Source of the DNA: Pyrodictium delaneyi
Lineage (GTDB): Archaea > Thermoproteota > Thermoprotei_A > Sulfolobales > Pyrodictiaceae
Assembly: GCF_001412615.1 (NCBI RefSeq)
Contig: NZ_CP013011.1
Location: 1,320,001-1,352,000, forward strand
Direction: 5' to 3'
DNA length: 32,000 nt
Shown here: piece by piece, positions 6,314 through 30,051 of the stretch
Layout: the number at the start of each line of letters is the position of its first letter
How positions within the stretch are numbered: the first letter of the stretch is position 1
Notes under the pieces: model-generated
What the model was told of the DNA's origin: nothing
What the model saw: only the letters and a program-made list of their open reading frames with translations
Database searches by the model: none
Translations under genes and position numbers: made by a program

Positions 6314-7846
6314 CTAGGCGGCCTCCTCCACTCCCTGTACCAATGATGCGATCCTATCTGCCAGTTCGTCATGAATTTGATCTAGCCGCCTAACCTTTCT
6401 CCTGCCTCTCGGAGCAAGTGCATCCCGGCAGAAGCGGACGAGAAGTGTCTCCCCATTTTCCCTCTTGGCCTCTATCAGGTTCCTCTCAAAGCCAGCGTGA
6501 GCTATATAGTTCCTAGTATTGGTGTCAGCGCGTCTACCCTTCTCGCCTAGCCACGTCCACTCGGGGCCTGCCCGTCTCAATGGAGTAGAAGGGCTAGTGA
6601 GTTCGCTTTTTACAAGCTCCTGCTGAGCTGGTGGCAAGTATTTCTCTGCAAGACCACGTATAGTGTCCACAGGTACCTCTAAGGCGCCATAATCGCTGAT
6701 CCGTATATTGCCGCGGTACTCGAGGTATGCTCTGCATGCATAGTCTAGGAGTGCAGCAGAAGCGAGAATAGCTTTGACGTCATCGTAATCAAACCCCACA
6801 AGTCTTAGTACACGCACCCAGCTGACACCAGTACGGATAATTACAGAGGACTCTAGGCTCCTCGACACTATGTCCACGAGTTTGTGAGTCACGTATGCTA
6901 GCCATGAGCTTCCCGGTGGCTGGGCGTTCTCATACCCGTACTGTAGCAGTGCCAGAGGGAGGCCATAGTGGAGTGTTGCTGAAGCCCTCTTACCCATAGT
7001 GTATACCTGGCGCCATGCCTTCTTAGCCTCTGCAATCCCTAGCTCCTTCGCCACATAGTTTGCAGTGTCGCTGCCGAGCCCTAGCCTCTCTAGAGTAGGC
7101 TTGTCGGTTATGCGTACAGGTGTAGGATCTCTCGCCCTCGCCATGGTGTATACGAGCCTCGTCGCAGCCTTGACGCTAGTGACAGCCTCGCGGTCTACTA
7201 GGTGTATCTCTAGAGTCTGGTCAGGCACGTATGGCTCGCTATTGAATACGTCAACGTTGATCCTTACACCGGCTGAAGCAGAGAGAATCCTCGCTGCAGC
7301 CATTACGGCCCGGAAAGCGGCTAGAGGCATGTAGTTTATACCATGCGTGATGTCCAAAGCTATCTCTACTTTCCCATTCACTTCTCCACGACTGTTGATC
7401 TCCGCTAGTTCTTCAAGCGTATAGGCTATGACGCAAGAAGCATAGTCAGAGACAGGGTTGCCGAGGAAGCTACGCCACTCACACCCAATAGAGGCTTCCT
7501 GCGGCTTAAAATGGCCGTGGGCTGGACAGACTGCGATACGCACAGCTCTGCCAGCAATATCGACGCCACTATTTTCCCGAACGTATTCTACTATGGCTGT
7601 CTTGAGTTCGTCTAATGCCTCTCCGTAGCTGTCTCTCTGAATGCTCTCTAGAAACTTGTTTATCATCTTGTTGCTGCATAGTGCACTCTCGGAGATGACT
7701 ATCAGGATGCGTCTCGGGTTTAGCGCCTTAGCTAGGCACGAGAGACTCGTGGTAGACTCCTCCTCGTAGCCCATAAACACGTACTTAGCTGGTCTCCAGC
7801 TCCACGGTAACCCCCACGGCGCTATAAGAAGGTCAGTTTCACGCAT
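6314..7846 (-). CDS. csx1: Csx1-family CRISPR ancillary protein (CARF domain + HEPN RNase)
   Basis: 510 aa. LDITHGINYMP is the DxTHG signature of Csx1-type CARF proteins. C-terminal TRNYIAHAGFE fits the HEPN R-x4-H motif (RNxxxH). A sampled 60-nt line has ~48% G+C, lower than neighbouring genes. Confidence 0.8.
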   Translation of the reverse strand: MRETDLLIAPWGLPWSWRPAKYVFMGYEEESTTSLSCLAKALNPRRILIVISESALCSNKMINKFLESIQRDSYGEALDELKTAIVEYVRENSGVDIAGRAVRIAVCPAHGHFKPQEASIGCEWRSFLGNPVSDYASCVIAYTLEELAEINSRGEVNGKVEIALDITHGINYMPLAAFRAVMAAARILSASAGVRINVDVFNSEPYVPDQTLEIHLVDREAVTSVKAATRLVYTMARARDPTPVRITDKPTLERLGLGSDTANYVAKELGIAEAKKAWRQVYTMGKRASATLHYGLPLALLQYGYENAQPPGSSWLAYVTHKLVDIVSRSLESSVIIRTGVSWVRVLRLVGFDYDDVKAILASAALLDYACRAYLEYRGNIRISDYGALEVPVDTIRGLAEKYLPPAQQELVKSELTSPSTPLRRAGPEWTWLGEKGRRADTNTRNYIAHAGFERNLIEAKRENGETLLVRFCRDALAPRGRRKVRRLDQIHDELADRIASLVQGVEEAA

Positions 7847-7889: not shown

Positions 7890-10193
7890 TTATGGCTTCG
7901 GGCTCCTTGCAAGCCTTTCGACTCTTACCAGGAGAGGTATACGGCGCTCGGGTACTGCGAGACCTGATACGAGGGCTTGGCCTGGCTCTAGGTCTGGAAG
8001 CCTCTCAACAGTCTCCTGGCTTACCGACCCGACACCCCTCTTTATCCCCGTCAAGTCGTCGGGGTTAGTTATACGGAGGGCTATCAGGGTAGCTGCTTGG
8101 CTGAGTATCCCGGGGTCTATGAAGCCGGGCCTCTGGCTGACCAGGATCAGGCTTAGCCCCCACTTTCGGCCTTCACGTGCCACCCGTAGCAGCAGGCTCT
8201 TGGAGGCTCGGTTCTCTCCGGCAGGAGCCAGGTTGTGGGCCTCCTCGACGACTATTAGGGTGCGGCGCTGGGGGCTATAGCTTGTAGTCGATACTGTGAA
8301 GGCTTCCGCTATGAGCCTGGCTACTGCGTGGTCGGTGTCTCCGCGGCTCGGGGGAGCTAGGTGTACTATGCTGAAGCCCTCGACAAGCCTCTGAGCGATG
8401 AGCCGGTAATGTGTAGCGTCTAGATGGGGTGACACGTGGCGGGCTACGCGGCGTAGGCCGCGGGCTAGGCTCTCTACTGTGCCCTTTGCATAACCTTCAA
8501 GGGAGCTTTTGACCCGGGAGAAGCTGGCACGGAGCGAGCCTACTAGCTCTCCGCTAGCCTTCTCGGGTAGCTTTTGCGGCTTCAAGCTGGCAAGTTTTTC
8601 GTCGTGCTCTAGTGCTGTGGCTATCACCTCCCAGGGGCTTATACTCGGGTCGCTTGACCCCCTACTAGGTGCTGGGAGGTAGCTTGCGATCTTGTAGAGA
8701 AAACCTGCTAGAGGGCTCTCATCTACCCCGGGCTGGCTAAGCCTCTCCTCAGCCTCTGATGCCAGGTTATAGGCTACGATCCCTGCTATGCTGCGGCAGT
8801 CCACAAAGGGGACACCCATGCTCTTGAGCTTCCTCCAGAGCGTAATGCACGCCTCCTTCTCGGCTTCGGCGGGGCTCTTACGGCCTACTAGTACACGTCT
8901 ATACTCATCTGCAGCATCTATTACGTGCTGTAATAGAATCCTGGGCTCAACTTTGTATCGTGTAAGCATATCCATTATGTCTGCTAGGCCCTTGACTTCG
9001 TTCACTACACCTACGTCGAGGAGCCCTAAAATATCGGCTACGGTTTCCAGGGCGTCTACGAATGCCGACGACGTTGTATGCGAGAGCTCGTAGACTTCCT
9101 CGACGCTGAGCCTCGAGGGAAGCGGAGTAGCAACCACGAGCATAGGCTCGTACTTGATGAGGCTAGCTGCAGTCTCCCTGGAGACGGATTTTATGCCACC
9201 ACTTGAATCGACCAAGTATATACTGTGGCGGCCATATACTAGCCCCCGCAAGTTCCTGCCAAAGCGCTTCTCCAGGTCTCCTAGGAGGCCCACAAGACTT
9301 GCTGCATACCTCTCGTCGCTCGCCCTCTTGAACCCAACCGATGAGAGATCGTAGGGAACTAGAATGGTCTTATTCGTGTTCCTAGCCCATGTTGCCGGCA
9401 AGCTGGTATACAGTTCGGGCTGCATCACGGCGTCGAGCAGGGGTACGATGTCCTCCCTGCGGTAGGGGTAGCCTGTATACTCCCCCGCTATATCGAAGAC
9501 TATGACCCCGCCGGAGTCGCTGAACTCGTCCTTCCTCCAGGCGTACTCCGCTACGATCCTCTTCACGGTCTCCGTCTTGCCGCTGCCTGTCTGCCCGAGC
9601 ACAGCCAGGTGCATTGTAAGCCTATCGGGGTCGAGATAGACGCGTATACCGGTATTGTATGCTAGCTTGCCGAGATAGATCCCCCTGCCGCCTTCGATAC
9701 CGCGGTGCAACAACGCCTCGATGGTGCTGGTGTCTGGCTCCTCTATGATGCTGCTTGGCCGCGGCGGCTGCTCGGGGAGGACTAGTACTGGACGGCCCTT
9801 CTCGTCTTGGGCTAGTTGGCCGAGGAGGCGCAGCTTTATCTCCCGTAGGCTGTGCCATGCGACTAGGCTGCTCGTGGGCGAGAATAAGGCCTCCAGTATG
9901 CGGCGGGCATCGGCTAGGCTCGAACCCCTCTCCTCGAGTATCCTTGCTATCTCTTCTAGCCTCTTGGTGTCGAGGGCTGGTATGAGGCTCTGCTCGGACA
10001 CGTCCACCACTAGTGCTAGGTAGTGGCGCTTGTTCTGCTCGTCGCGTACCAGCGCTAGGGCGCCGTAGCGGAGTAGCGTGGTAGCCGACTTGTAGACTAC
10101 GCCGCGTAGCTCGCTGTAGGACTCGACCGAGGCTATGAAGCCTACGAAGCCCTGGCTGCCTGGAGGGGGCGTGGAGCTAGGCGGCGTAGTCAA
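7890..10193 (-). CDS. HerA/FtsK-superfamily ATPase (HerA-like, enlarged)
   Basis: 767 aa with a TTG start. N-terminal HerA-barrel-like segment (GFVGFIASVESYSELRGVVYK...YLALVVDVSE). Walker A is VLGQTGSGKT (residues 198-207, nt ~9571-9600). Walker B is LIVVEEAHNL (residues ~646-655, nt ~8241-8262). Followed by RKWGLSLILVSQRPGFIDPGILSQAATLIALRITNPDD, typical of DUF87/HerA ATPases. Confidence 0.8.
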   Translation of the reverse strand: MTTPPSSTPPPGSQGFVGFIASVESYSELRGVVYKSATTLLRYGALALVRDEQNKRHYLALVVDVSEQSLIPALDTKRLEEIARILEERGSSLADARRILEALFSPTSSLVAWHSLREIKLRLLGQLAQDEKGRPVLVLPEQPPRPSSIIEEPDTSTIEALLHRGIEGGRGIYLGKLAYNTGIRVYLDPDRLTMHLAVLGQTGSGKTETVKRIVAEYAWRKDEFSDSGGVIVFDIAGEYTGYPYRREDIVPLLDAVMQPELYTSLPATWARNTNKTILVPYDLSSVGFKRASDERYAASLVGLLGDLEKRFGRNLRGLVYGRHSIYLVDSSGGIKSVSRETAASLIKYEPMLVVATPLPSRLSVEEVYELSHTTSSAFVDALETVADILGLLDVGVVNEVKGLADIMDMLTRYKVEPRILLQHVIDAADEYRRVLVGRKSPAEAEKEACITLWRKLKSMGVPFVDCRSIAGIVAYNLASEAEERLSQPGVDESPLAGFLYKIASYLPAPSRGSSDPSISPWEVIATALEHDEKLASLKPQKLPEKASGELVGSLRASFSRVKSSLEGYAKGTVESLARGLRRVARHVSPHLDATHYRLIAQRLVEGFSIVHLAPPSRGDTDHAVARLIAEAFTVSTTSYSPQRRTLIVVEEAHNLAPAGENRASKSLLLRVAREGRKWGLSLILVSQRPGFIDPGILSQAATLIALRITNPDDLTGIKRGVGSVSQETVERLPDLEPGQALVSGLAVPERRIPLLVRVERLARSPKP

Positions 10194-10337
10194 GGCCAGC
10201 TACAGCCCCGAGCAGGGTATATGTCTCCCCTGGGCTCTAGATAAGGGTTCTAGATATGCTGCCCCAGGGCGTGGATAGCATAGCATGTCCTCCAACGCTG
10301 CTACGCCCATAGCATCGTCTCCGCTACGCTGTATGTG

Positions 10338-11939
10338 CTATGCTAGGAGGGTGCGGGTCTCCCAGCCCCTTATGAAGCTGAGGTATGGCTGACTCTTCTT
10401 GGACATGTTTTCGAGGAGTGTTTTGAGGATATGCGCCTCGTCTAGGCTAAGACGGCTATACTTGTCCACTACCAGGAGCTGCGGGGGATACCCGTAGACT
10501 GTTAGGGATGCCGAGAGGCCGGTGAAAGACAGCAGAGTGTCCCAGCCCTGCATGCCATCCACGTACTCAACCCTTAAAGCTGGCGGCACTACTAGGAGCC
10601 GCGCTGCCTCGCACGGCGAAAGGCCTGCCTCGCCTAGGCTCCCGCGTAGCTCGCTACAGCCCGGCGGGCGGCGGGGCATTATGTAGGCGTATCTTATCTT
10701 GCGTAGCTCGTCTAGGGTCCTATACGCCTCGTCGATGTGGCATCGGAGCCTCTGCTCGCCCCCACGCTCCTCGAGCACTATCTCTAGCCAGCCTGTGTCC
10801 CCGCGCCGGGGCCTCGGCCGCGTAGCAGCGTAGACCCCGCCGCCGGGGGCAGGGCTAAGGTAGTAGAAGCCGTAGACAAGGTCGCTATCACTATAGCTCG
10901 TGGGGAGTACCCCGCTACTCCGTATCGCGGCCTCTAGCTGCTCCCTGGAGGCCGTCTCTAACCCAGTACCGTAGCGGAGCTGGAGCTCCTGCTCAAGCTC
11001 TGTGAGCATCTGTTCCCACTCACGCCTAGAGTCCAGCGCATCGGCTACAGCGCCCGGGTCGTCGCAGAGACAGTCCGCCGCATAGTCTGGGCCTCCCAGA
11101 GCCTTCAACGCGTCAACAATCTTCCGTTTCAGCAGCTCGCTCATCCACCATATCTTGCTGGCTACATTCTCGCTAGCAGACCTTCTCGCTACGTCGTGGA
11201 CTATGTCGGCTACCACCGAGGCTGCTAGGATGCGGCTCCTCTCGACACTCTCTACAACGCCCCCTACGCCGCAGTCGCCGTGGGAGGCGTCCTCGGCTAG
11301 ACGGCGGAGCAGGGAGAGCACAGCAAGCCCGATGTTAGCCCGGCCGCTATCCCTGCAGAGCCTAGCATCACCGACAATGCTATTCACCGTCCCGGGACCT
11401 AGCCCGGCGTAGCCTAGGGCAGCCCGGAGCACCCGCTCCGGCACATCGTATGCCCTGGAGAGTAGATGGTGTACCTGCTGTAGGAGAGGGCCATGGCGTA
11501 CTACGATGGCGTGCTCTGCCCCTGGTAGGCCGTGGCTATCGAGGAGCCTCTGCCATCCCTCGCATAGTGTGAGCAGCATGGCGAGTTCGACTAGGTAGCT
11601 TATGCCCTGCCTAGCTCTATCACTCCCCGCCATGGTGAAGATTGAGGGCCCTAGCCTCCCGTCGTCGTGCACGGGTGCTGGGTGGAGAACACGCTCCTCA
11701 ACTCTGCCTCCGCTGCTAGCCCTAGCGAGTACAGCTAGCTTGACCGCGAAGGCTTCTCCGCCCGGCTGCCTGACAGTCCTCGAGCCGGCGTCCACGTAGA
11801 AGAACGCCGTATCGGCGTCGAGGAGCCTCTCGGGGCCGGGCAGGCTCTCCCCTGGGAGCCAGAAGCCGCCGCTGCCGTAGCGGGCTAGGGCGGCGAAGAG
11901 TAGCTGGTAGGGCTCCAGCGTCAACGTATCCCTGCCCAC
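10338..11939 (-). CDS. NurA-like nuclease (putative partner of the HerA-like ATPase)
   Basis: 533 aa with a GTG start. N-terminal FFYVDAGSRTV resembles the NurA catalytic (V/I)DGS motif. C-terminal VYGYPPQLLVVDKYSRL resembles the NurA GYP...(A)D motif. Position immediately upstream of a HerA-like gene fits the HerA-NurA pairing. The call rests on short motifs only. Confidence 0.55.
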   Translation of the reverse strand: MGRDTLTLEPYQLLFAALARYGSGGFWLPGESLPGPERLLDADTAFFYVDAGSRTVRQPGGEAFAVKLAVLARASSGGRVEERVLHPAPVHDDGRLGPSIFTMAGSDRARQGISYLVELAMLLTLCEGWQRLLDSHGLPGAEHAIVVRHGPLLQQVHHLLSRAYDVPERVLRAALGYAGLGPGTVNSIVGDARLCRDSGRANIGLAVLSLLRRLAEDASHGDCGVGGVVESVERSRILAASVVADIVHDVARRSASENVASKIWWMSELLKRKIVDALKALGGPDYAADCLCDDPGAVADALDSRREWEQMLTELEQELQLRYGTGLETASREQLEAAIRSSGVLPTSYSDSDLVYGFYYLSPAPGGGVYAATRPRPRRGDTGWLEIVLEERGGEQRLRCHIDEAYRTLDELRKIRYAYIMPRRPPGCSELRGSLGEAGLSPCEAARLLVVPPALRVEYVDGMQGWDTLLSFTGLSASLTVYGYPPQLLVVDKYSRLSLDEAHILKTLLENMSKKSQPYLSFIRGWETRTLLA

Positions 11940-12005: not shown

Positions 12006-12980
12006 TTGCCTGAGCCTCTATACAGCAGCTGCGAGGCCCACCTAGCCACAGTCGGGACAAGCCTGCTAGCCAACACGCTCCGCCTAGTACGCCAGGCCCT
12101 GGCCTCCGGCTCCACCCAGGCAAGGCTGGCCACGCCCCTGGGCAGCGTCACGGTGGACTTCAGCCAGCTCGGCGGCCCCGGGGCCCTCAGGGAGGTGGAG
12201 GAGTGTCTTGCCAGCTGCGCCGACCCAGCCCGTATCGACGAGGAGAAGTGTAGGCGCTGCATGTCGGGCGACACGCCGGCCAGGAGAGCGGTCGAGCTAG
12301 TCCTATACGCTGAGCCGTACACGGCCTCGGCGGAGCTTAACGCGGCCCGGTGGAGGCTTGGGAGCCCCCCGCGCTGCCCCGGCGGCGTGTTCTTCGTCCT
12401 CTACGCCTCCGACACCATTGCCGGGCAGCTAGCCGCGGAGATCCTAAGAGGCTACCTGGAGGACATCGGCTGCCGGGCCCGGGTAGAGGTCGTCAAGGGC
12501 CTCGGCCAGGAGCTGTGGGAAGGCATCGCTGAGCTAGCCCGGAGGATAATCTGCCACACAGACTGCCTAGCAGCCCGGGGTTGCCGGGTCTACGTAAACC
12601 CGACTGGCGGCTTCAAGCCCGAGTCAGCGGCGGCGGTGCTGGCAGCGGGCCTCGCCGGGGCGACAGCAGCCTACTACGTCCACGAGGCCATGAGGGAGCC
12701 CGTGTTCATACCGTTCCCACCGCTGGTAGTAGATGCGCGGCAGGCCTCCAGGCTCCTCCACGGAGCTGCGGCGCTCGAGACACGGAGCAGCGTCTGCCAG
12801 GGCGAGGTAGACGACCAGCTACTCGCGCTAGCAGTGCAGGCGGGCGCCGCCAGGCCCATGCCCAGGCAGCCCGGCTGCTACATGGTGGACGAGGAGAGGG
12901 CCCGGGAGCTCACGAGGCTACTCCGCGTAGTCCTCGGCGCCGGTGGCTGCGAGCCAGGCTGCCCAGTCCCCGGGCAGTAG
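12006..12980 (+). CDS. CARF-domain protein (Csm6/APE2256-like CARF) with short uncharacterised C-terminal tail
   Basis: 324 aa with a TTG start (the first start after the in-frame stop at 11970). HLATVGTSLLAN at the N-terminus, ASAELNA, and VYVNPTGGFKPES are hallmark CARF (APE2256/Csm6-type) motifs. The ~85-aa tail has no clear effector motif. Confidence 0.7.
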   Translation: MPEPLYSSCEAHLATVGTSLLANTLRLVRQALASGSTQARLATPLGSVTVDFSQLGGPGALREVEECLASCADPARIDEEKCRRCMSGDTPARRAVELVLYAEPYTASAELNAARWRLGSPPRCPGGVFFVLYASDTIAGQLAAEILRGYLEDIGCRARVEVVKGLGQELWEGIAELARRIICHTDCLAARGCRVYVNPTGGFKPESAAAVLAAGLAGATAAYYVHEAMREPVFIPFPPLVVDARQASRLLHGAAALETRSSVCQGEVDDQLLALAVQAGAARPMPRQPGCYMVDEERARELTRLLRVVLGAGGCEPGCPVPGQ

Positions 12981-13004: not shown

Positions 13005-14711
13005 GTGGGCTGGGAGCAGCCCGCCGGGGCCCTCACCGGGGCGCTCCGGGGCTGCAGCCGGGTATACCTCGCCAACGCTGGCACAAGCCCCGAGGCCGTC
13101 GCCTCCGCGCTAGCCAGGCTAGCGGAGACCGGGCTACTCGACGAGACATGCATCATCCTGCTCACAACCCCGCAGAGCGCCACGGTGGCTAGGAAGGCCT
13201 CGGAGATCCTCAGCAAGGCAATGGACTTCGACTCTCTCAGGGCGCGCATAATTGTGGACGCCGACGCCGGGGAGGGGAGCGTCTACACCGGGATATTCGA
13301 CGACCCGTCCACAGCCATCGAGTCGCTACGCAGGTTGATGGCGGCTATACTGAGGGAGGCTAGGGAGGGGGATATACGGCTCATAGGTGCGGACATAACC
13401 GGCGGCACGAAGCTCATGGCGGGTGCGCTCGCGACGCTAACAGTCGCTGCAGCCATGTCCACGGGGGAGAAGAGGGCCGAAGACCAGGCGGGTAGAAGCG
13501 TCTACATATCGTATGCGCCGGGCGAGGCCTTCAGCCGCCCCGGGCTCCGGCAGAACGCCCCGGCGGGGTGGTGGGGAGGCAGAAGCTACCCCCACATACC
13601 GAGGCCCCTGCAGAAGCTAATACTGGTCGATGCAGCCCTTGTAGCCGGGAAGCCAGCCAGCGGGGGCGTTGTCCGCTACGCGTGCATGCCTGGGCTACTG
13701 AGGCTCCCGGAGCGCCTAGGCCTAGTACTCGACCCGGACGCGGGGCTTAGCCCCCTCCTAGACGCGGTCGCGTGGTCCACCCGGGTCGTCAACGCCGCTA
13801 CCTGTGGAGAGGCAGCCATAACCCTCGCCATATCGGGTAGGCGGTGGAGAATAGCCACCATAGACTGGCAGAAGCCAGCCCTAGAGCTGGATACCCCCAG
13901 GCTGCTGTGGGACGAGGGCTGGGTCAATATAGCTCACAGCTACGCTGATGCTCTCGGCGTCAATGACGACAGGCAGGTGGAGCAGCTCCCCAAGTGCTTC
14001 TCGAGGCTAGCCAGGTTCGCGGTAGCCCGCCTCGCGGTACGGGACGCCAGCGGGGACTATAGCGGTCTAAGGGGGAGGCCATTCTCGGAGGCGGTGATCC
14101 GCGCCGCCCAGGATGGCAGAGGCATCGTCCTGGACACTAATGCGCTGTACAACGGTGCTCATAACAGCCTCCTAGAAGCCGAGACCATAGCCGCTCTTAG
14201 GCCGGTGCAGCCACAGCCCCGCAGCAACCCGCTACACGTGCCGTCATGCGCGCTCCGAGAGCTACGCAACAGGCTGATGGAGGAGGCTAAGCAGAAGCCA
14301 GGCCTGGCAAGCCCATGCTTCGCTTCAACACTACTAGCCCACCAGGCGGCTAGCGGGCTCCCCGTAGTGGAGACGCCCGGCGAGCAGCGCTGCGACTACA
14401 CAGTCTACGAGATGGCCAGGAAGGAGCAGTACATAGTAGCCACGTCAGACACTGGAATAGCAAACCTGGCAAAAGCCACCGGCGCACCGCTACTACACCT
14501 CCACCCGAGTAGCCCAGCGCACCCAGACCAGGAGAAGCCCTGGACACAGCACCAGGCAGCAGCCGCAGCAGCCCAGCTCATAGCATACCTCGCCATGATC
14601 ATTCCCTGCAGCAAGGGCAGCGTGCTGGTAGAAGGCGACGCCAGAACAGTAGCCCTATGCCGCCAAGACGGCTACATAGCCGCAAAGGAGGAGAACAAGC
14701 ACAGCAAATAG
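13005..14711 (+). CDS. CARF-PIN fusion protein
   Basis: 568 aa with a GTG start. N-terminal CARF-like motifs VYLANAGTSPEAV (residues ~20-32) and IGADITGGTKLMAG (~127-140). C-terminal PIN-like motifs GIVLDTNALYNG (D377), ALRELRN, and YIVATSDTGIANLAKATGAPLL (D482). About 200 unassigned residues lie between the two domains, and a ~65-aa tail follows. Confidence 0.7.
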   Translation: MGWEQPAGALTGALRGCSRVYLANAGTSPEAVASALARLAETGLLDETCIILLTTPQSATVARKASEILSKAMDFDSLRARIIVDADAGEGSVYTGIFDDPSTAIESLRRLMAAILREAREGDIRLIGADITGGTKLMAGALATLTVAAAMSTGEKRAEDQAGRSVYISYAPGEAFSRPGLRQNAPAGWWGGRSYPHIPRPLQKLILVDAALVAGKPASGGVVRYACMPGLLRLPERLGLVLDPDAGLSPLLDAVAWSTRVVNAATCGEAAITLAISGRRWRIATIDWQKPALELDTPRLLWDEGWVNIAHSYADALGVNDDRQVEQLPKCFSRLARFAVARLAVRDASGDYSGLRGRPFSEAVIRAAQDGRGIVLDTNALYNGAHNSLLEAETIAALRPVQPQPRSNPLHVPSCALRELRNRLMEEAKQKPGLASPCFASTLLAHQAASGLPVVETPGEQRCDYTVYEMARKEQYIVATSDTGIANLAKATGAPLLHLHPSSPAHPDQEKPWTQHQAAAAAAQLIAYLAMIIPCSKGSVLVEGDARTVALCRQDGYIAAKEENKHSK

Positions 14712-15214: not shown

Positions 15215-15286
15215 GAACAACTCTAAGAACACAAAAAGACACCTAGAACCACCCTCCACCGCACACAACGGCCACAAATTACACTC

Positions 15287-15797
15287 CATTCAGTTCTATT
15301 TGCCATGATTCAGAGCGTGAACAGCGGCCTCGACCGCTACGTCGGCTAGCAGGACTTTCAGTTCTATTTGTTATGATTCCTAGTAACTGAAGTCGGGTAC
15401 GAGGAGGCACAAATGATACGTGTCTTTCAGTTCTATTTGTTATGATTCATGGTGATGTTGAGGAAGCTAAGGCACTCCTAGAAGCCATAGTCTTTCAGTT
15501 CTATTTGTTATGATTCCTTCGGGAGTTGGCGCTCCTCACGCCCGAGGAGCCCCTCATTCACCTTTCAGTTCTATTTGTTATGATTCAGAATATGTAAGTA
15601 CACCATTTGTCAGGACTACAGAGTCATCTTTCAGTTCTATTTGTTATGATTCTTGAAGGCAGCTAGTGATTGGTGGCTATCCAACGTATTAACGAAAACG
15701 TTGACTTTCAGTTCTATTTGTTATGATTCCACCGGCGGCTAAGAGGGAGCAGCCCAAGGAAGAGGCTAAAGCCTTTCAGTTCTATTTGTTATGATTC
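15287..15797 (-). CRISPR. CRISPR array 1 (8 repeats, 7 spacers), transcribed on the minus strand
   Basis: The 25-nt repeat CTTTCAGTTCTATTTGTTATGATTC on the plus strand starts at 15287*, 15355, 15424, 15492, 15562, 15628, 15705 and 15773 (* = 3 mismatches). Spacers are 43, 44, 43, 45, 41, 52 and 43 nt. The degenerate copy lies at the left end and the conserved leader at the right, so the functional orientation is GAATCATAACAAATAGAACTGAAAG (GAAAG 3' end, predicted 8-nt handle ACUGAAAG). Confidence 0.95.
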
Positions 15798-15834
15798 TGC
15801 ATTTTCTCTGTCTAGTGTAGTTGTTGTGGTGCAT

Positions 15835-16147: not shown

Positions 16148-16163
16148 CCTTGTGTTTGTTGTG

Positions 16164-16784
16164 TTAGGTGTTTGTTTTGTGGTAGAGTGTTAGCCATGGT
16201 GTTGGTAGGATTAGGTTTGCTCGCTGGGTTAGGAGTTGTAGTCGTTGGAGTGTCCGGGTGTGTCTTCGGATTGTCCGCTCTGAGAGGTTGAGGCTTGCTG
16301 CTAGCTGGGGTATTGTTGCCGGGCCGTTGGCGTGTATGTGGTTGGCTATTCTGCGCTGGATTCCGGGTAGGCTGTTTGTCAGTATCGTGTGGACTGTGTG
16401 GAGTGGTATGGTTGTCTCTGTTGTCCGGATTGTTGCTGTTTTTTCTGTCCGTGCTGTGTGGATGAGGAGGGCTAGGGCTATGGCTAGGGTTGTTTCTGGC
16501 GTGGTGTGCTCGATGATCGCGGTTGCCGTGGTCTTGGTGTCTAGTGTGTCGAGTATCTGTGCTATGGCTGTTGCTGGCTCGTGGGGGTTTATGGCTACTA
16601 GTCTTGGCTGGGGGTGGCCTGCTAGCTCTGCCAGGGTGGCTACCTGCTGTAGCGTTGCCTGCATCGGGATGGTTACGGGCTGTTCTGCTACTAGGACTAT
16701 CTCGGCTCCTCCGGTGGCTGTTAGTAGTGCTTTGAGGGCGGGTGTGGGCGTGGGCGTTAGTGGCGCTATGACGGTGTGGCGCGT
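16164..16784 (-). CDS. csa3: Csa3-family regulator (CARF + winged HTH), start codon anomalous
   Basis: The track ORF is 16164-16664 (166 aa), with a C-terminal wHTH (IANHIHANGPATIPQLAASLNLSERTIRRHTRTLQRLQLL). The frame stays open upstream to the TAG at 16800-16802. Those 45 codons (..TRHTVIAPLTPTPTPALKALLTATGGAEIVLVAEQPVTIP) look like the first beta-alpha-beta of Csa3 CARF domains. No ATG/GTG/TTG occurs there. An ACG at 16784-16782 lies 7 nt after a GGAGGGG Shine-Dalgarno-like run. Confidence 0.65.
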   Translation of the reverse strand, partial: TRHTVIAPLTPTPTPALKALLTATGGAEIVLVAEQPVTIPMQATLQQVATLAELAGHPQPRLVAINPHEPATAIAQILDTLDTKTTATAIIEHTTPETTLAIALALLIHTARTEKTATIRTTETTIPLHTVHTILTNSLPGIQRRIANHIHANGPATIPQLAASLNLSERTIRRHTRTLQRLQLLTQRANLILPTPWLTLYHKTNT

Positions 16785-17009
16785 AAGCCTTCCCCTCCTC
16801 TACGTGTATCCTAGTGCTGTATGTATTGTGTTTTACGCTTCTGCGGTCCATCTATCCTTGTTGGCTACGTGCTCGTCGCCTATGGTCCCTGTTGCCTGCT
16901 CCGGGCTTTGCGGGGTGCCTATGGGTGTTGGGTCCCGTGCCGCCGGGGCAGGGTGGTGCTAGATAAGTCACGGTATTACCTTATATCGGGTGGGTTCTGG
17001 GCTGCCTTG

Positions 17010-17903
17010 ATGCTCTCGCCCAGCAGTGTCGGGAGGCTGCTCCGGCGGCTCCACGCGCTGAGGAGCCGCGACCCTGTCCCCGAGGAGCTGAGGGGCTGGA
17101 GCTGGTGGAGCCCGCCGCTGCGGCCCCGGGCCCACTTAGGCCTAGGCGTGAGCGAGGCGGCGATACGCTGGTGCCCTAGCCGCCGCGACCTCTACCTCCG
17201 CCGGGTCCGCGGCCTAGAGCCGCCGCCTAGCAACGGCATGCTCCGCGGGAGAGTCGTGCACGAGGCATTCCGCCGCAGCGCCGTGGACGTGGCTAGGCTC
17301 CACGTGCTAGGCCGAGAGCCCCCAGGCATCGTGGCGGAGCTCGTCGCGGATGCCGAGGAGGCTGCGAGGGGCATAGCTGAGGAAGCAGGCGCCCCGGGGC
17401 TCGAGGACCTAGCAGCCAGGGCCTACACCCGCTTCGTGTTCCTCTGGAGCGGCTGGGTCGAGGAGACAGGGCAGCCCCCATGGTACACCGAGTACGCTAT
17501 CGACGGCTCGCTACTGGGGCTCTCCCCGAGGCTCCGGGTCAACGCGCTCGGGGTAGGCATAGTGGTCGAGGTCAAGCTCGGGGGCTGGAGAGACGACTAC
17601 CCCGCCGCGCTGGCGGGCTACGCGCTCGCCCTAGAGGCTAGCCACGAGATCCCCGTAGACTATGGCCTCGTGCTCCTCGTCTCCGGCGACGCCTCCAGGG
17701 TCGAGGCACACCCCGTCTACCTCGGCGCCGACGAGAGGATAGCCTTCATCGAGGCCAGGGACGAGGCGATAGAGATGTTCCTCAGCGGCCAGGACCCTGG
17801 CACGCCCTCTGAGTGCAGCCGGGGCTGCCCCTTCGCCCGCCTCTGTAGCCCCACAGCGCCGGCGCGAGGCGGCAGCGAGGCAGCAGGGGAGGCGGTGGCT
17901 TGA
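17010..17903 (+). CDS. csa1: Csa1-type Cas4-family nuclease (PD-(D/E)xK with Cys cluster)
   Basis: 297 aa from ATG 17010. TTATAT at ~16980-16986 lies ~25 nt upstream, a leaderless spacing. The track start at 16821 adds 63 Cys/Gly/Val-rich codons from the G+T-rich strand. Motifs: IRWCPSRRDLYL (N-terminal Cys), GIVVEVKLG (D/E-x-K), and C-terminal CSRGCPFARLC. Confidence 0.75.
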   Translation: MLSPSSVGRLLRRLHALRSRDPVPEELRGWSWWSPPLRPRAHLGLGVSEAAIRWCPSRRDLYLRRVRGLEPPPSNGMLRGRVVHEAFRRSAVDVARLHVLGREPPGIVAELVADAEEAARGIAEEAGAPGLEDLAARAYTRFVFLWSGWVEETGQPPWYTEYAIDGSLLGLSPRLRVNALGVGIVVEVKLGGWRDDYPAALAGYALALEASHEIPVDYGLVLLVSGDASRVEAHPVYLGADERIAFIEARDEAIEMFLSGQDPGTPSECSRGCPFARLCSPTAPARGGSEAAGEAVA

Positions 17904-18889
17904 CCCGCGTCCTCGTAGTGGCGGCGCACGGCGCCAGGATACGGGTCCACCGCCGCAGCCTCGTGGTGGAGAGCAACGGGGAGCGGATGGTAGCGCCCCT
18001 CCACGAGGTAGACCGCGTAGTCGTGGCCACGAGCGGGGTCTCGGTGACGAGCAGCGCTATCCGGCTACTAGCCAGGAGCGGGGTGGGCATAGTCTTCCTC
18101 GACGCCCACGGGGAACCCATAGTCTCGCTGGAGCCTCCCTGGATAAACGCGGCAGCAGAGACACGGCTCGCCCAGTACCGGGCTAGCGTGGAGCGGCCCC
18201 TCAACCTCGCCAGGGCCATGGTCGCGGCTAAGCTGGAGAACCAAGCTGGGTTCCTCCGCAGCCTAGCCCGGCGGACCAGCGCAGCCTGGCTACGCGAGGA
18301 GGCGGCCGCGGTCGAGGAGCGGATGCTCCGCGTCTACTCGGCGGGCTCGGCCGAGGAGATACGGGGCCTCGAGGCCCAGGCCGCCCGCCGCTACTGGGGC
18401 TCCCTAGCCAGGCTTCTCCCCCAGAGCCTGGGCTTCCAGGGCCGCGACCACGGGAGCCGGGACCCGGTGAACACTGTCCTCAACTACCTCTACGGCGTGC
18501 TCTACGCCGAGGTCTTCCAGGCCCTCGTGGTCCACGGGCTAGACCCCTACGTCGGGTTCCTCCACGCCCTGCGGCCTGGGAGCCCCGCACTGGTATATGA
18601 CTACGCCGAGATGTTCCGCGTCAGCGCCGTCGACAGCCTAGTCTACACGATGCTCGCGAGCCGGGACGCCCCGGGCATCAGGGTAGACCCTGAGACCGGG
18701 CTGCTAGCCCGCGAGACCCGGGCAGAGCTAGTGAAGCGCATGTACGAGTGGCTGCGCCGCCGCGCCGTGGATTCGAGGGGCCAAGCCGAGCCCCTGGAGA
18801 GGCACATCAGGCTCTATGCCCGCCGGCTAGCCCAGAGCCTCCGCGCCGGTACAGACTACCAGGGCTTCGTAGAGGCCTGGAGGCCGTGA
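17900..18889 (+). CDS. cas1: Cas1 integrase
   Basis: 329 aa with a TTG start overlapping the csa1 stop. NTVLNYLYGVLYAEVFQALVVHGLDPYVGFLHA...PALVYDYAEMFR is the conserved Cas1 C-terminal catalytic region. Confidence 0.9.
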   Translation: MTRVLVVAAHGARIRVHRRSLVVESNGERMVAPLHEVDRVVVATSGVSVTSSAIRLLARSGVGIVFLDAHGEPIVSLEPPWINAAAETRLAQYRASVERPLNLARAMVAAKLENQAGFLRSLARRTSAAWLREEAAAVEERMLRVYSAGSAEEIRGLEAQAARRYWGSLARLLPQSLGFQGRDHGSRDPVNTVLNYLYGVLYAEVFQALVVHGLDPYVGFLHALRPGSPALVYDYAEMFRVSAVDSLVYTMLASRDAPGIRVDPETGLLARETRAELVKRMYEWLRRRAVDSRGQAEPLERHIRLYARRLAQSLRAGTDYQGFVEAWRP

Positions 18890-19179
18890 TCATACTAGTA
18901 GCCTACGATATAAGCGACACGGGCCGCCGCGACCGGGCAGCCAAGCTGCTACAGAGCATGGGGCTGTCGCGTCTCCAGCGGAGCCTCTACGCGGGCCGAG
19001 GCGGCGCAGCCAAGGCCAGGGACATAGCCCGGGCTCTCGAGCGCATCCTGGACCCCGAGACCGACGTAGCAGATATCCTCGTCCTCCCAGACCACGTGTG
19101 GAGCCGCCGCATAGAGGTCGGCAATGGCAGAGCAAGGGTGCCAGGGCGTGCACATCCACCCGGAGTACACCTCGCCTAG
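18886..19179 (+). CDS. cas2: Cas2
   Basis: 97 aa from GTG 18886, with a GTGA overlap on the cas1 stop. VIILVAYDISDTGRRDRAAKLLQSMGLSRLQRSLYAG is the classic Cas2 N-terminus. The track start at 18748 lies inside cas1. Confidence 0.85.
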   Translation: MIILVAYDISDTGRRDRAAKLLQSMGLSRLQRSLYAGRGGAAKARDIARALERILDPETDVADILVLPDHVWSRRIEVGNGRARVPGRAHPPGVHLA

Positions 19180-19735
19180 ACTAGTCACCGCCACTCTCGT
19201 AAAGCTCCACGAGTGGTGCCCACTCCTCGCATGGCTAGCCGCTAACACCCTCCCCCGCATAGCCCCGACACCCTCCATGAGGGAGGGGAGGCGCAGCCAC
19301 ACCAGGGAGGAGCTAAGACGCGTAGCAGAGGAACTAGGCCTAAGACGGCCAGCAGTACAGGTAGCCCTAGCAAGCACACAATACGGCGCCACCGGCACCA
19401 TAGACATAATCGACAAGGAGACAGGGACGATAATAGAGGTCAAAGCAACGGCCAGGAGGAAGCCACACCGCAGCCACCTAGCCCAGCTAGCAGTCTACAC
19501 CCTCCTAGCAGCCGAGAACAACCTCAAACCAAGACGAGCAGCAATAGCGACACCAGAGCCCAGGATAATAGCAGAGCTCCCCGCCGACACCTACACCCTA
19601 CAATGGGCCAGAAACCTCATACAGAGAACCAGGAGGACAATAGAAAGCCCAATCCCACCCCTAGTAACACAGCCCAGAGAGAAATGCCGCTACTGCACAC
19701 ACCGCCACACCTGCCCATACCCAAACCTAGACTAA
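19124..19735 (+). CDS. cas4: Cas4 (RecB-like nuclease with 4-Cys cluster)
   Basis: 203 aa. Motifs: HEWCPLLAW (first Cys), GTIDIIDKETGTIIEVK (D...EVK), HLAQLAVY (QxxxY), CRYCTHRHTC (CxxCx5C). Start uncertain: ATG 19124 overlaps cas2 by 56 nt, and the alternative is GTG ~19148. The 3' two-thirds is strongly A+C-rich. Confidence 0.85.
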   Translation: MAEQGCQGVHIHPEYTSPRLVTATLVKLHEWCPLLAWLAANTLPRIAPTPSMREGRRSHTREELRRVAEELGLRRPAVQVALASTQYGATGTIDIIDKETGTIIEVKATARRKPHRSHLAQLAVYTLLAAENNLKPRRAAIATPEPRIIAELPADTYTLQWARNLIQRTRRTIESPIPPLVTQPREKCRYCTHRHTCPYPNLD

Positions 19736-20055: not shown

Positions 20056-20091
20056 AGCTATAACAGAGGCACATAGAGTGGACAACATGCA

Positions 20092-20665
20092 GAATCATAA
20101 CAAATAGAACTGAAAGACCGCTCCCCGCCCCCTACGCAGATTTCTCGATTAGCTCGCCCACGCGAATCATAACAAATAGAACTGAAAGACTTCACCGCTG
20201 TCTCTCACTTCAACCTCTGACAGTAGATGGAATCATAACAAATAGAACTGAAAGCTCCACGTAGAGCTTCTTTACTAAGAACGACTTCCCGGCCCGTCTG
20301 AATCATAACAAATAGAACTGAAAGACCTTAACGACGCGAAAACCATGCCTGAACACCTTATCGGATACGAATCATAACAAATAGAACTGAAAGTATCTCC
20401 CTTCCTTGATGTACTCTAACATTTTTTCGCTAATGGTGAATCATAACAAATAGAACTGAAAGCTGTCAAACTTCAGTGCCTCTGGTCTAGCAAAAAACGC
20501 TAGCCTGAATCATAACAAATAGAACTGAAAGTACTCGCCGTCCAAGTCCTTGATGAACGCCACTGAGTCCAGGTGAATCATAACAAATAGAACTGAAAGA
20601 TTAGGTAGCCCGGAGCCGGGAGAAACCAATGGCTGCTGTAGAATCATAACAAATAGAACTGGAAG
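20092..20665 (+). CRISPR. CRISPR array 2 (9 repeats, 8 spacers), transcribed on the plus strand
   Basis: GAATCATAACAAATAGAACTGAAAG starts at 20092, 20164, 20230, 20300, 20369, 20438, 20507, 20575 and 20641* (* the terminal copy ends GGAAG, 1 mismatch). Spacers are 47, 41, 45, 44, 44, 44, 43 and 41 nt. Confidence 0.95.
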
Positions 20666-20683
20666 GCGTTAACAATTCTGGGC

Positions 20684-24276: not shown

Positions 24277-25338
24277 CTAGGCGACTACCACGGTGCCCCA
24301 TCCGAGCCTCGTATAGGCTCCTAGACCTCTACGGGCGGCCTCCTTTGCAGCTCTGCAGGGGTCTTCCCGGGTAGTCGCTACCACGATTGTGCCAGCTGGT
24401 ACGAGTAGGAGAGGCGGGCGATGCACCTCCCGTGCCATACTCCAGCCAGGCATCACGGCTTCTACTGGCTCGCGTGTCAGCTGCACTATGTAGGGCTCTC
24501 TGGGCTCGAGGATGCTCTCGAGCCCCGCGGCGCTGACTAGGCTCTCGGCTAGCCTCTTCGCGGCGCTCTTTGTCAGCTCTATGACGCCGGCCCAGGGGCT
24601 CTCGTCTAGTAATGCTGGCGAGACTAGTAGCAGGAGAAGCGTGTTGTTGCCGCTGCATGCAGAGAGGAGGCCCACTGGCTCGGTGTCGGAGCTACGTAGG
24701 ACTAGCTGGGCTGGACGCTGCTCTCCCCCAAGCGTGGTCATAAATCTTTTCTCACCCTCCTCTATGGGGCTCTTGGAGGCCTCCACTAGGGCTACGAACT
24801 CCACAAGCTCTGTGCCCTGAAGGGGGTCCAGCATCCCTATAGTATAGAGCATCCCGGGGGCAGCTGTCTTACTAGAACGGTTTAGGGCTATACCGGTGCG
24901 CCTCAACACCCTAGCCTGGAGAGACGAGCCGGCCTTCAGACCCTCCATGAGCCCCTCGAAGAGGAGCCGGGGTCTACCGCTGAGCGGTGCGACGCTGGCT
25001 AGTAGCTTCTTCACAGTATCTAGGGGAGCGTAGCCCCTGCTGGTGTAGACGTAGAGCTTGCCGCTGTGCCTAGCTAGCCCGGTGTACAGGTGGTATTTCT
25101 CCCCGAAGAGCGATTCCAGGCAGGCCTCAGTGTCACCGTAGACCCCGGGTCTCTGTGCCCTGCTGCAGGCTCCCGCCTCGTAGGCTAGAGAGGCTAGTGC
25201 TCCCGCTATGGTTGAGGGCATGGGGTATGCTAGGGTCTCGCTGGCTGCGCCGGGGCCGTGGACACGGGCTTCGAACACGCCTGGACGCCGGAACGACATA
25301 GGCCAAGCCGACCTGAACGCGGCCTCCAACACGGGCAC
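24277..25338 (-). CDS. cmr3: Cmr3 (Cas5-family RAMP of type III-B)
   Basis: 353 aa with a GTG start. Motifs: YPMPSTIAGALASLAY, TGIALNRSSKTAAPGMLYT, TTLGGEQRPAQL and C-terminal RLGWGTVVVA match Cmr3 hallmarks. Sits immediately downstream of cas10. Confidence 0.8.
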   Translation of the reverse strand: MPVLEAAFRSAWPMSFRRPGVFEARVHGPGAASETLAYPMPSTIAGALASLAYEAGACSRAQRPGVYGDTEACLESLFGEKYHLYTGLARHSGKLYVYTSRGYAPLDTVKKLLASVAPLSGRPRLLFEGLMEGLKAGSSLQARVLRRTGIALNRSSKTAAPGMLYTIGMLDPLQGTELVEFVALVEASKSPIEEGEKRFMTTLGGEQRPAQLVLRSSDTEPVGLLSACSGNNTLLLLLVSPALLDESPWAGVIELTKSAAKRLAESLVSAAGLESILEPREPYIVQLTREPVEAVMPGWSMAREVHRPPLLLVPAGTIVVATTREDPCRAAKEAARRGLGAYTRLGWGTVVVA

Positions 25339-25352
25339 GCCGCGGCCACCCC

Positions 25353-28300
25353 CTAGGAGGATGTGGTGCCCTCTTTCCGCCTCGGGGGCCTCCTAGCAGC
25401 TGTACGCGTGACTCCCGCTGCATGGAAAACCATGGAGGCTAGAGGGGCTCTTACAAGGCACTCACACAGCTCGACAGCCAGTCCAGAGTTCTCCAGTATA
25501 GCGGCTACCATGCTGTCCTTCTCGGTAGCCACAGCTACAGAGGCTACTGCATTGATGAGGTCCTCTCTAGCCCTATCCGGTAGGCTAATCCTGCTACCCA
25601 GGATATCCGCCACTTTATCTAGCTCGTTCTGGGCGGCAGCGGCGAGCCTGCGTGTAGCAGCATACTCGTCCTCCTCGCCTGGCTTCTTGCAGCGGCTGCG
25701 CTCGCAGCAATTACGCATCAGATAGTGCTCGATAAGGCTCAGAGCGGCCCTCATATCTCTCTCAGCTAGTTCTGCTAGTAGCCTTGTATCGCCGGTTAGG
25801 TCGCGTATAACGCTGGCGGAGAGTGCCAGCTCGTAGCTCTTAGCTCCACATTCCTCTATAGAGAACAGTATGGCCTTGACTAGGGCGCCGGTTAGCCCGG
25901 CATCTCCTCCCCCGGGCTCTAGGCCTAGAGTAAATGGTAGCACTGCTACGCCGCTAACCTCGCTAGCAACTATCAGGGCATCCTTACATCTGGCTACACC
26001 ACCGAGACAACTACCTCCATACTCGAGATAGGCTATACTGTCCTTAGCGTCTAGCAGTTCGTGGGCAGTGCGGAATGCTAACCACATAGGAGTCTTAGCA
26101 TGTGCATAGTAGACCACTGTGCTGCGGCCAGCGCCCCGGATAGCCGGGACCACGACCCCTAGAGGCCTATGATGCTCTCTGTGGTCACCATTCCCGCCCG
26201 GCACGTAGACGTGGAACCCGTTAGGGTACGCCTTTAGCCCCCAGTAGCTCCGCCGAGCCGCTATAGCGGCAGCGAGCGCGGGGTAGGGTACACCTCTCTC
26301 CCGTGGATCCCCGGTGCCAGGCGGCAGGATGGCCACAAGGTCGTCGCCACCAGCGTAGACTAGGAAGCCGCCGAGCACCTCCACAATAGCGCGATCCATA
26401 ACAGCGGATGCCGCCAGGGCTCTGGATACCGTGTAGTGGTAGGAGGGCGTAACTACTAGTGTTAGCCTCCTCTCTGGGCACCCTAGCCTATAGCCTTGCT
26501 CCCCTCCTCCAGCCTCCGGCCTCCTGAGCACCTCATCTAGCGCGTCTACGAGTGCCGCGAAGGCCTCAGCTATAGCCCTCCTAGCCTCTGGGTCCGCTAC
26601 CTCTAGCAGCGTCTCCATGTACCTGTGGGGCTCTACGCCGAGCCGGCCCTGCAGCACCCCCCGGCCCATGAAGTCGCCGTCAGCAGCCACCACAGCATAG
26701 TAGGCTGAGCCATACCCAGCAGCCTCATCCAGGGCCTTGATAAGCCGGGCGCCGATATCGCCTGCAGCATAGGCGTTAGCAACAGAGTTACGCAGCCCAG
26801 CGTCAACAAGGAGTGAGGGCACACTAGACTCTAGAGCTCCTACTAGCCTCTCCGTGTTAATGTTCGCTGCCTCCTCATCCTCCTGAAGCTTATCCCGGAC
26901 TATCTTGATCAGCTCCTTCCTCTTGTCTTCCTCTAGCCACTTCTCCACGCCGTAGCTGAGATGGCCACTCGTGACGAGAGAGTACAGCTTACGTAGATCG
27001 TCGACGCTGAGCCCCCCTATGAACTTCTTTAAGGCCTCTGCTAGCTTGGCGCGGTTCACGTGTAGCCTGGAAGTGTAGGCGTCAACACTGCTAGCCACTA
27101 GCTTCTCTCTGTGACTCTCCTCAAGCTCTAGGCCCACGAGCTGTCCTGCTATTCCCTTCTTGCCTGCCTCCTGGATGCCTTGTAGCATGGTACGGAGCAT
27201 ACGCTTGACTAGACAGTATGGGCAAAGTCTCTCACCACGAGCCTCAGCTAGCAACCTAGCGGCTGTGGCACTTTCTGCTTCTCCACTACTTCTTCGCATC
27301 TCATCTATGACTCTTGTCAACTTTTCATACGCTCTGCTCCCCGGCTCCGGGGGGTTGATGAGCGCTACCGCGCGGCCACATACGGTACAGAGTCGTGGCT
27401 GCACCTTCTCCTGTTTATCAATGGTGCCGAGGTACGTGTTGTACATGCTCTGGGCGTAGTCTAGGTAGCCCTTCCCGCTACGGCGGCTAGCCCTTATGAG
27501 GGCCTCCTTCTCCTCCCTCGGCAGATATACTAGCTGGAGGAATGCGTAGAAGAGTAGGTCACGGTCGCCACGTAGCCCCTCTAGCACCTTGACAGCGTAA
27601 TCGTCGTCTCCGCCTCCCAGTCTCCTCCGTGCCCGATCCCATACCCGGCACTCCCGGAGCCACTCCTCATACTCCCTATAGGCCTCTGCAACGTCGACTA
27701 CCGTGATGCGTAGAGGCAGCGGCGGCTCCAGCCCCTCTAGTAGCTCTCGTATATCCCTGGCCTCGGCTAGGCGTAGAAGCACCCGGAGCCCTTGTAACTC
27801 TCTCCGTAGCTCTCCATCCTCGTACTGTTCTAGCAGCTTCCTAACCTCGCCCTCCTTAAGGACCTTTACCAGCTCCTCGACGTAGCTTGCCAGCTCGCCG
27901 ATGATACCTCGCCACACAGCAGCATAACTTGATACGATGTTCTTCTCCACTTCCTGGGGTGTTCCAGCCTCCCGCGGCAGAATGATGAGCACGCGTGACG
28001 GCACAGTGGGGTCTATTGGCCAGCCCTGGAACCAAGGCTCAAGCACACTATGGAGCACATCAACAGCACGGCTTTCCCGGGCCTCCTTCTCCAGGTCGCT
28101 CCACCTTCTGAAGCCTAGCTTGCTGAGCAGCCACGCCGTGTAGAACGGGTGTAGCCGGGCCGGCGGCTGAAGCAGTACATCCGGGCCAAATCTCTCTACA
28201 AGAGGCTCAACACTTTTCCACGCAAGGAAGCTAGCAAGCCACGATGCAGCCCACATGTCGCGTAGCCGCCGAGCCTCGCTTATCCAGCTCTGCACCGAGG

Positions 28301-29084: not shown

Positions 29085-29102
29085 ATGCGGGGCGACAGAG
29101 AA

Positions 29103-30029: not shown

Positions 30030-30051
30030 CGTGAACTCACCTCTTAGTGTC

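Follow-up and report, generated by a model that had tools for sequence, protein, structure and literature searches.

A 32,000-nt stretch of the Pyrodictium delaneyi genome (RefSeq assembly GCF_001412615.1, contig NZ_CP013011.1, positions 1,320,001 to 1,352,000), called the window here, carries two genes in a row on its minus strand. One encodes a 767-aa protein of the HerA family of hexameric ATPases/translocases (7890-10193) and the other, upstream of it, a 533-aa NurA-like nuclease (10338-11939); all positions are counted from the first letter of the window. Judging from predicted structures, the two are very probably a motor-nuclease of the NurA-HerA type. Because the pair is embedded in a cyclic oligoadenylate (cOA)-sensing gene module, beside CRISPR arrays and a type III-B cassette, we consider it most likely, with moderate confidence, that it helps CRISPR immunity by degrading DNA and is not a housekeeping end-resection machine. 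For the clade to which the window belongs, gene context makes an immune role a balanced to slightly favored proposition. Pyrde_1341 and Pyrde_1342 of P. delaneyi match the HerA and its partner, respectively, with 100% identity. The NCBI annotation starts the NurA-like partner five codons later, giving 528 aa, and the P. delaneyi genome paper makes no mention of either gene.

By sequence and by model, the 767-aa protein is a HerA. It matched Pfam DUF87 (PF01935) with 64.8 bits against a cut-off of 23.2 (1.6e-17) and the HerA models of PADLOC with E-values down to 3.8e-40, the latter in two separated stretches, and solved HerA structures were matched at the sequence level. The AlphaFold2 (AF2) model, made with 40 homologues in the alignment, had a mean predicted local distance difference test (pLDDT) score of 90.1. 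When this model was searched against the PDB with Foldseek, the best matches were the HerA of the Thermococcus kodakarensis (Tko) HerA-NurA complex (9x1m_A, 9e-26) and SsoHerA (4d2i_B, TMt 0.71), with the bacterial defense HerAs ranking behind them. Walker A (GQTGSGKT, residues 200-207; 9573-9596, minus strand) is invariant in the 40 homologues, as are E650 and E651 of Walker B (LIVVEE, residues 646-651; 8241-8258, minus strand), the REGRKWG motif at residues 673-679 and the QRP motif. Since the HerA matches are accompanied by invariant Walker, REGRKWG and QRP motifs, the ATPase is probably active. The Pfam HAS-barrel was not matched, and the AF2 model has N-terminal beta strands at residues 18-138. 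A hexameric ring and ATP-driven DNA translocation are predicted by analogy with known HerA proteins.

An earlier reading of the window, made by a model from the letters and open reading frames (ORFs) and referred to here as the sequence-only reading, had called this ATPase HerA-like and had described it as a non-canonical, diverged member of the group. The Foldseek, DUF87 and motif results agree with the first statement, including the invariant arginine motif, and profile scores bear out the second. The NCBIfam HerA models gave 101-118 bits (1e-29 to 4e-34), where equivalog cut-offs lie at 800-970; for the repair-HerA equivalogs NF040937 and NF040819, the scores were 101.5 and 103.2 bits, about one-eighth of the cut-offs (800 and 970). 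The PADLOC model "HerA Type III coevolved" also matched (2.6e-16), more weakly than the generic HerA models did.

The enlargement of this HerA lies between the Walker motifs. The ORFs, the positions of both motifs and the spacing of about 440 residues given by the sequence-only reading were confirmed, with 444 residues from K206 to E650. The spacing is 249 in T. kodakarensis HerA (K191-E440, counted from the profile alignment), 251 in the HerA of a Thermoproteaceae metagenome-assembled genome (MAG; L036) that is paired with a Pfam-positive NurA, and 351-451 in the scored homologues of the window HerA. The large inserted domain postulated from this spacing is real, confidently modeled and has no detectable relatives, but the extra material amounts to about 230 residues and not to about 440, because about 135 residues of the stretch between the Walker motifs are normal HerA. 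The expanded region spans residues ~241-605 (8379-9473, minus strand), with boundaries taken from the profile alignment to TkoHerA, and lies between two strands, the conserved one with GEY and the one with "FSIVHLAPPS". This interval is about 365 residues long in the window HerA versus about 135 in TkoHerA, where it includes a four-helix-bundle (HB) domain of about 100 aa, so the excess over canonical HerA is about 200-230 residues at the HB position. The HB domain sits at the DNA-entry face of HerA and moves to capture double-stranded DNA (dsDNA) (PMC12977600). In the AF2 model, the expanded region consists of a small alpha/beta subdomain (~275-356) followed by about 10 helices (364-605), with pLDDT mostly 90-98. 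It is kept in 40/40 homologues at lengths of 276-371 aa and is the least conserved part of the protein: from 277 to 601 it has no invariant position, and the polar residues S375, T572, R578 and D592 come closest (at least 90%). The low conservation and the lack of an invariant residue speak against an enzymatic role and in favor of a structural or docking one. Residues 243-606 searched alone against Pfam and PDB sequences gave no meaningful match.

The 533-aa partner was recognized through its fold. Searches of Pfam, NCBIfam, PADLOC and the PDB with phmmer and a 34-sequence profile returned no significant match; no PADLOC model matches bona fide NurA either. When 1.84 billion representative proteins were scanned in full with HMMER, only 44 clusters of the partner family emerged, nearly all of 480-570 aa. 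The family profile retrieved only 2 proteins in a word-indexed search. The alignment and the AF2 input comprised 34 of the 44 clusters, with identities of 20-80%. The resulting model (pLDDT 91.6, predicted template modeling score 0.91) has the NurA/RNase H-like fold on which the sequence-only reading had staked its assignment. The top 10 PDB matches in Foldseek were NurA structures only, with E-values of 6.9e-7 to 6e-4 and probabilities of 0.98-1.00, followed by RNase H; they included SsoNurA (2ygk, 6.9e-7, TMt 0.55), PfuNurA (3tai, 3tal and 3taz) and TkoNurA (chain G of 9x1l, 9x1m and 9x1n). In this model, N-terminal helices (residues 1-43) precede an RNase H/PIWI-like core (44-235), which is interrupted by an all-helical insert (237-412; 10704-11231, minus strand) and resumes at 413-533. 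The insert, about 175 aa here and 152-199 aa in the 34 homologues, takes the position of the M domain of Pyrococcus furiosus NurA, which comprises residues 189-286 and is inserted in the PIWI domain (PMC3300031). No meaningful match was obtained when the helical insert was searched alone against Pfam and PDB sequences.

The partner family also has a candidate active site. Four acidic residues are invariant in 34/34 sequences: D50 in the first long strand, E118 in the long helix, E230 just after the strand that follows position 149 and D492 in a C-terminal helix. The motifs YVDAGS (residues 48-53) and GYPPQLLVVD (483-492), which the sequence-only reading had picked out in this 533-aa protein, are there as described and hold D50 and D492. 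Position 149, at the end of the strand after the E118 helix, carries His in 29 of the 34 sequences and Asp in the other 5 and is followed by an invariant G150, and Y482 is kept in 32/34. The active-site residues of SsoNurA are D58, E116, D133, K202 and Y298 (PMC3326311), and those of PfuNurA are D51, E105, D126 and H411, the last of which is replaced by Glu in Thermotoga NurA and by Asp in TtAgo (PMC3300031). D50, E118, position 149, E230, Y482 and D492 follow the same order and lie on the same secondary-structure elements as these sites, a putative correspondence drawn from residue order and secondary structure. We read the partner as a NurA-fold nuclease with a rewired, probably functional metal site. 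By analogy with solved NurA structures, a toroidal dimer with Mn2+-dependent nuclease activity is predicted.

Two cysteines of the partner, C290 and C428 in DCLC and PPxC motifs, are each kept in 32/34 sequences and, in this protein of a hyperthermophile, might pair as a disulfide or serve as a metal site. For comparison, the Thermoproteaceae locus (L036:2102-5398) encodes a Pfam-positive NurA of 415 aa, divergently oriented, and a HerA of 629 aa. No relatives of this NurA were found in a metagenome scan.

The two genes behave as one operon. In 29/29 related loci that include upstream DNA, the partner gene shares the orientation of herA and lies directly upstream of it, with gaps between the two genes of -109 to +144 bp. 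The distance matrices of HerA and its partner correlate with r=0.93 in a mirror-tree comparison across paralogous clades, a value reached by 0/2000 permutations.

In the window, the operon stands among genes of CRISPR signaling, as the sequence-only reading had noted in calling its neighbors CRISPR ancillary genes. Directly downstream of herA is csx1 (6314-7846, minus strand), whose product has a CARF domain (Pfam Csx1_CARF, 8.8e-33) and a HEPN RNase domain (Csx1_HEPN, 6.3e-07) with an intact RNxxxH motif (RNYIAH, residues 445-450). On the other side and divergent from the nurA-like gene lies a gene for a CARF7/Cas_APE2256 protein, which is "Csm6"-type and ring-nuclease-like (12006-12980, plus strand). 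It matched Pfam Cas_APE2256 (1.3e-28) and PADLOC CARF7 (4.5e-138), and it matched the NCBIfam ring nuclease at 4.9e-21, under that model's cut-off. Next comes a gene for a 568-aa protein (13005-14711, plus strand) with weak CARF/PIN-like similarity (PADLOC CARF_m3--CARF_PIN, 1e-9) and no match in a Pfam search. Its homologues adjoin the pair or the APE2256 CARF gene in related loci (L041/L042 and L003), and the 568-aa protein belongs to the same module as these genes. Further along are CRISPR array 1 (15286-15800, 8 repeats), the adaptation module csa1-cas1-cas2-cas4 (16821-19735, plus strand), CRISPR array 2 (20083-20672, 9 repeats of the same sequence in the opposite orientation) and a type III-B cassette with cmr3, cas10/cmr2 and two RAMP genes (24277-31917, minus strand). 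Cas10/Cmr2 (25353-29084, minus strand, 1243 aa) retains GGDD (residues 912-915) and, in its N-terminal part, HD (19-20). Since Cas10 retains its GGDD cyclase motif and Csx1 its HEPN motif, cOA signaling by this locus is probably functional. Among the sizeable ORFs of the window, none was found to encode an Mre11 or Rad50 domain, in agreement with the absence of mre11 and rad50 reported earlier.

The enlarged family is small and found mainly in Desulfurococcales. A genome scan recovered it in Pyrodictiaceae, Acidilobaceae, Aeropyrum, other Desulfurococcales MAGs and a few Thermoprotei/Thermoproteales MAGs. The HerA tree has two main clades, and clade A holds the window. At 77% HerA identity, the whole module is kept in clade A, with a 564-aa protein and APE2256 followed by NurA-HerA-Csx1, and at 56% identity a Pyrodictiaceae MAG has NurA-HerA-Csx1-APE2256 amid five CRISPR arrays. 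The arrangement of the 568-aa protein and CARF7 beside NurA-HerA-Csx1 is kept in L041/L042 and L003/L006, and Csx1 has the same place relative to herA in L041 and L003. Further clade-A contigs adjoin Cmr3, type I-A Csa5/Cas7 or a CRISPR array, and the pair of a Thermoprotei MAG (L032) adjoins an APE2256-type CARF gene. On two clade-A contigs the pair stands amid toxin-antitoxin genes. The region around a clade-A pair in L043 (the same as L007; 1200-6000 and 12268-12747) is dense in toxin-antitoxin genes and genes related to them, with PIN, MazE, TumE, AF2212-like and PaREP1 among them, and no cas genes in view. In at least three MAGs (L005/L011; L021/L025/L026; L023/L024; Acidilobaceae bins), two or three copies of the pair that belong to different clades occur together. 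Such copies point to old paralogy inside a single genome, although contamination of the bins could also account for them. A viral origin of the family was rejected: a search of IMG/VR found no relatives, and BFVD gave weak RNase H matches alone.

The scheme that we favor is based on solved complexes, in which HerA threads dsDNA into NurA (PMC3326311, PMC12977600). The HerA hexamer would pull dsDNA by ATP hydrolysis through its central channel into the NurA-like dimer, which would cut the strands. The enlarged HB region might form a deeper or gated vestibule for DNA entry, or a docking surface. In Pyrodictiaceae, the operon is embedded in the conserved cOA-sensing module of the 568-aa CARF-like protein, CARF7/APE2256 and Csx1, beside the arrays and the type III-B genes. 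We infer that the two proteins may form a complex, that this complex may cut DNA and that it may serve defense with a link to cOA.

Several observations weigh against this scheme. The Pfam NurA model (PF09376) matched 0/34 members of the partner family, even at E<=1, and an hhalign comparison of the family profile with one Pfam-positive NurA (from L036) gave an E-value of 0.16, which is not significant, while pairing GVVED with the NurA "SKD" strand. Because the Pfam, PDB-profile and hhalign searches were not significant, homology to NurA rests on predicted structure, gene context and motif order. NurA appears to be very divergent in general, since the Pfam-positive NurA of L036 likewise matched no PDB NurA by phmmer. 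At the site itself, 29/34 partners have His in place of the Asp with which canonical NurA binds metal M1, and the conserved Lys is Glu, so that activity could differ or be lost. No CARF or SAVED domain was found in either HerA or its partner. Finally, clade B, the sister clade, which is mostly from Acidilobaceae, has housekeeping neighbors, with no conserved neighbor and no cas genes nearby. Since clade B sits among housekeeping genes, the enlarged family as a whole is not bound to CRISPR. Consequently, the "defense-dedicated" label of the sequence-only reading is plausible for the window from its CRISPR context, but it does not extend to the sister clade.

One possible explanation of these data is that the pair is a housekeeping paralogue for DNA-end resection or repair that processes chromosomal breaks, has no immune role and merely lies beside a CRISPR locus. 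The neighbors of clade B, which include FEN1/XPG, RNase HII, transporters and beta-oxidation enzymes, would fit such a function, as would the vertical distribution of the family within Desulfurococcales and the lack of copies in IMG/VR. However, the CARF-gene module around the pair is kept down to 56% HerA identity, and independent clade-A loci adjoin Cmr3, type I-A genes or arrays. The missing linkage to mre11/rad50, the scores far under the NCBIfam repair-HerA equivalog cut-offs and the two or three copies in some MAGs also speak against a repair paralogue. We regard it as unlikely, although it survives best among the alternatives to a CRISPR accessory.

Another possible explanation is that the pair assists CRISPR adaptation by fragmenting linear foreign DNA for spacer capture by Cas1-Cas2-Cas4/Csa1, as RecBCD/AddAB does in bacteria. 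Such a role was proposed by Bernick et al. for CRISPR-linked nurA-herA (PMC3396285), and it would suit a pair that lies 5 kb from csa1-cas1-cas2-cas4 with arrays on the flanks and whose Tko counterpart degrades both strands of dsDNA (PMC12977600). The conserved partners in related loci are CARF genes, though, and not cas1/cas2, and the adaptation genes are not adjacent in L003 or L041. An adaptation role therefore seems improbable.

The pair could also be a stand-alone innate defense system, an archaeal analogue of Sir2-HerA, DUF4297-HerA or TdpAB, whose proximity to CRISPR genes reflects the clustering of defense islands. It is a self-contained two-gene operon found in varied contexts, including regions rich in toxin-antitoxin genes, and it matches defense HerA structures and the PADLOC HerA models strongly. 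Yet the repeated adjacency of an APE2256-type CARF gene, seen in Pyrodictiaceae, in the Thermoprotei MAG L032 and in Thermoproteales (PMC3396285), exceeds what generic island clustering would give, and the neighbors in clade B are not defense genes. Taken together, these points make a stand-alone system quite improbable. Least probable by far is a catalytically dead NurA-like scaffold, with the pair acting as a DNA translocase or remodeler that does not cut: the His and Glu substitutions in most members and the absence of a sequence-level NurA match would agree with it, but D50, E118, E230 and D492 are invariant over 34 sequences that share 20-80% identity, position 149 is still Asp in five members, and His, Asp and Glu are all found among the residues that bind metal in the active sites of NurA/Ago (PMC3300031).

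The remainder of the window holds V-ATPase subunits, a NUDIX protein and an SPFH protein at its left end, before csx1, and a helix-turn-helix regulator between array 2 and the type III-B cassette. Arrays 1 and 2 share one 25-nt repeat and bracket csa1-cas1-cas2-cas4 in opposite orientations; the repeats that open array 1 and close array 2 are degenerate. The tract that separates array 1 from csa1, about 650 bp long (16150-16800), is strongly enriched in G+T on the plus strand, with a GC skew of +0.31 and an AT skew of -0.52. Its ORFs on both strands give low-complexity translations, rich in His/Pro/Thr/Asn or in Val/Cys/Gly, and look like artefacts of composition.

CRISPR-linked NurA/HerA pairs are not a new concept. 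In 2012, clusters of nurA-csm6(APE2256)-herA beside CRISPR arrays were reported from Pyrobaculum and further Thermoproteales (PMC3396285), the accessory families "Cas NurA/Cas HerA" were listed in 2014 (PMC3973734), and CRISPR NurA/HerA were recovered in 2018 as the type III co-evolved clusters 57/58 (PMC6546367). A structural paper of 2026 still calls the role of NurA-HerA in defense an open question (PMC12977600). The window pair shares with the published pairs its place beside arrays, type III/I-A genes and an APE2256-type CARF ("csm6") gene. It differs from them in its gene order, which is nurA-herA-csx1 with csm6 divergent, in the enlargement of both subunits and in the two swapped active-site positions. 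In addition, the CRISPR-linked NurAs of Pyrobaculum match Pfam NurA at 1e-9 to 1e-16, in contrast to the complete absence of such matches in the window family. The window family appears not to have been described previously, although Tagg_0814/0815, a published Desulfurococcales example, could belong to it.

Compared with canonical HerA-NurA (Sso 2YGK/4D2I, Pfu 3TAI, Tko 9X1L-P), the window HerA has the same predicted P-loop hexameric translocase fold with an N-terminal barrel, a RecA core and a C-terminal brace. The partner has the RNase H/PIWI-like fold with acidic residues in the same catalytic order, and the two genes are likewise adjacent and co-evolving. The window pair lacks the mre11/rad50 linkage, however, and its Walker spacing is 444 where ~200-250 is canonical, with ~365 aa at the HB position instead of ~100-135. 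The partner differs from canonical NurA in escaping the Pfam model, in the replacement of the second Asp by His and of the conserved Lys by Glu, and in its 175-aa helical insert. Bacterial HerA systems (Sir2-HerA/Nezha 8J4U/8SUB, DUF4297-HerA 8ZIQ/9C1M, TdpAB 8WFD) are also two-gene modules, whose HerA hexamer links DNA handling driven by ATP to an effector, and their sequence and structure matches to the window HerA are strong. The window pair, a putative defense system, differs from them in its NurA-like effector, where they have Sir2, DUF4297 or TdpB, in its archaeal host and in its far larger HB region.

CRISPR-adjacent NurA-HerA pairs have been catalogued for more than a decade, and no function has been demonstrated for them. 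The enlarged family is an extreme and well-delimited case, with confidently modeled extra domains in both subunits, a rewired NurA site and an operon fixed within a conserved CARF-gene module. It also shows that NurA homologues can wholly escape current sequence models. We further speculate that the elaboration of about 230 aa in HerA and the helical insert of the NurA-like partner are a regulatory interface on which the APE2256-type protein or another CARF neighbor docks, so that cOA switches on processive shredding of DNA. This is a long shot, but if true, the pair would define a class of type III CRISPR effectors that is new, and the nurA-csm6-herA association, unexplained since 2012, would be accounted for. 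The cultured host, P. delaneyi, offers concrete constructs and mutants with which to ask whether type III immunity has a motor-nuclease as one of its arms, and the sister clade outside CRISPR loci provides a natural comparison.

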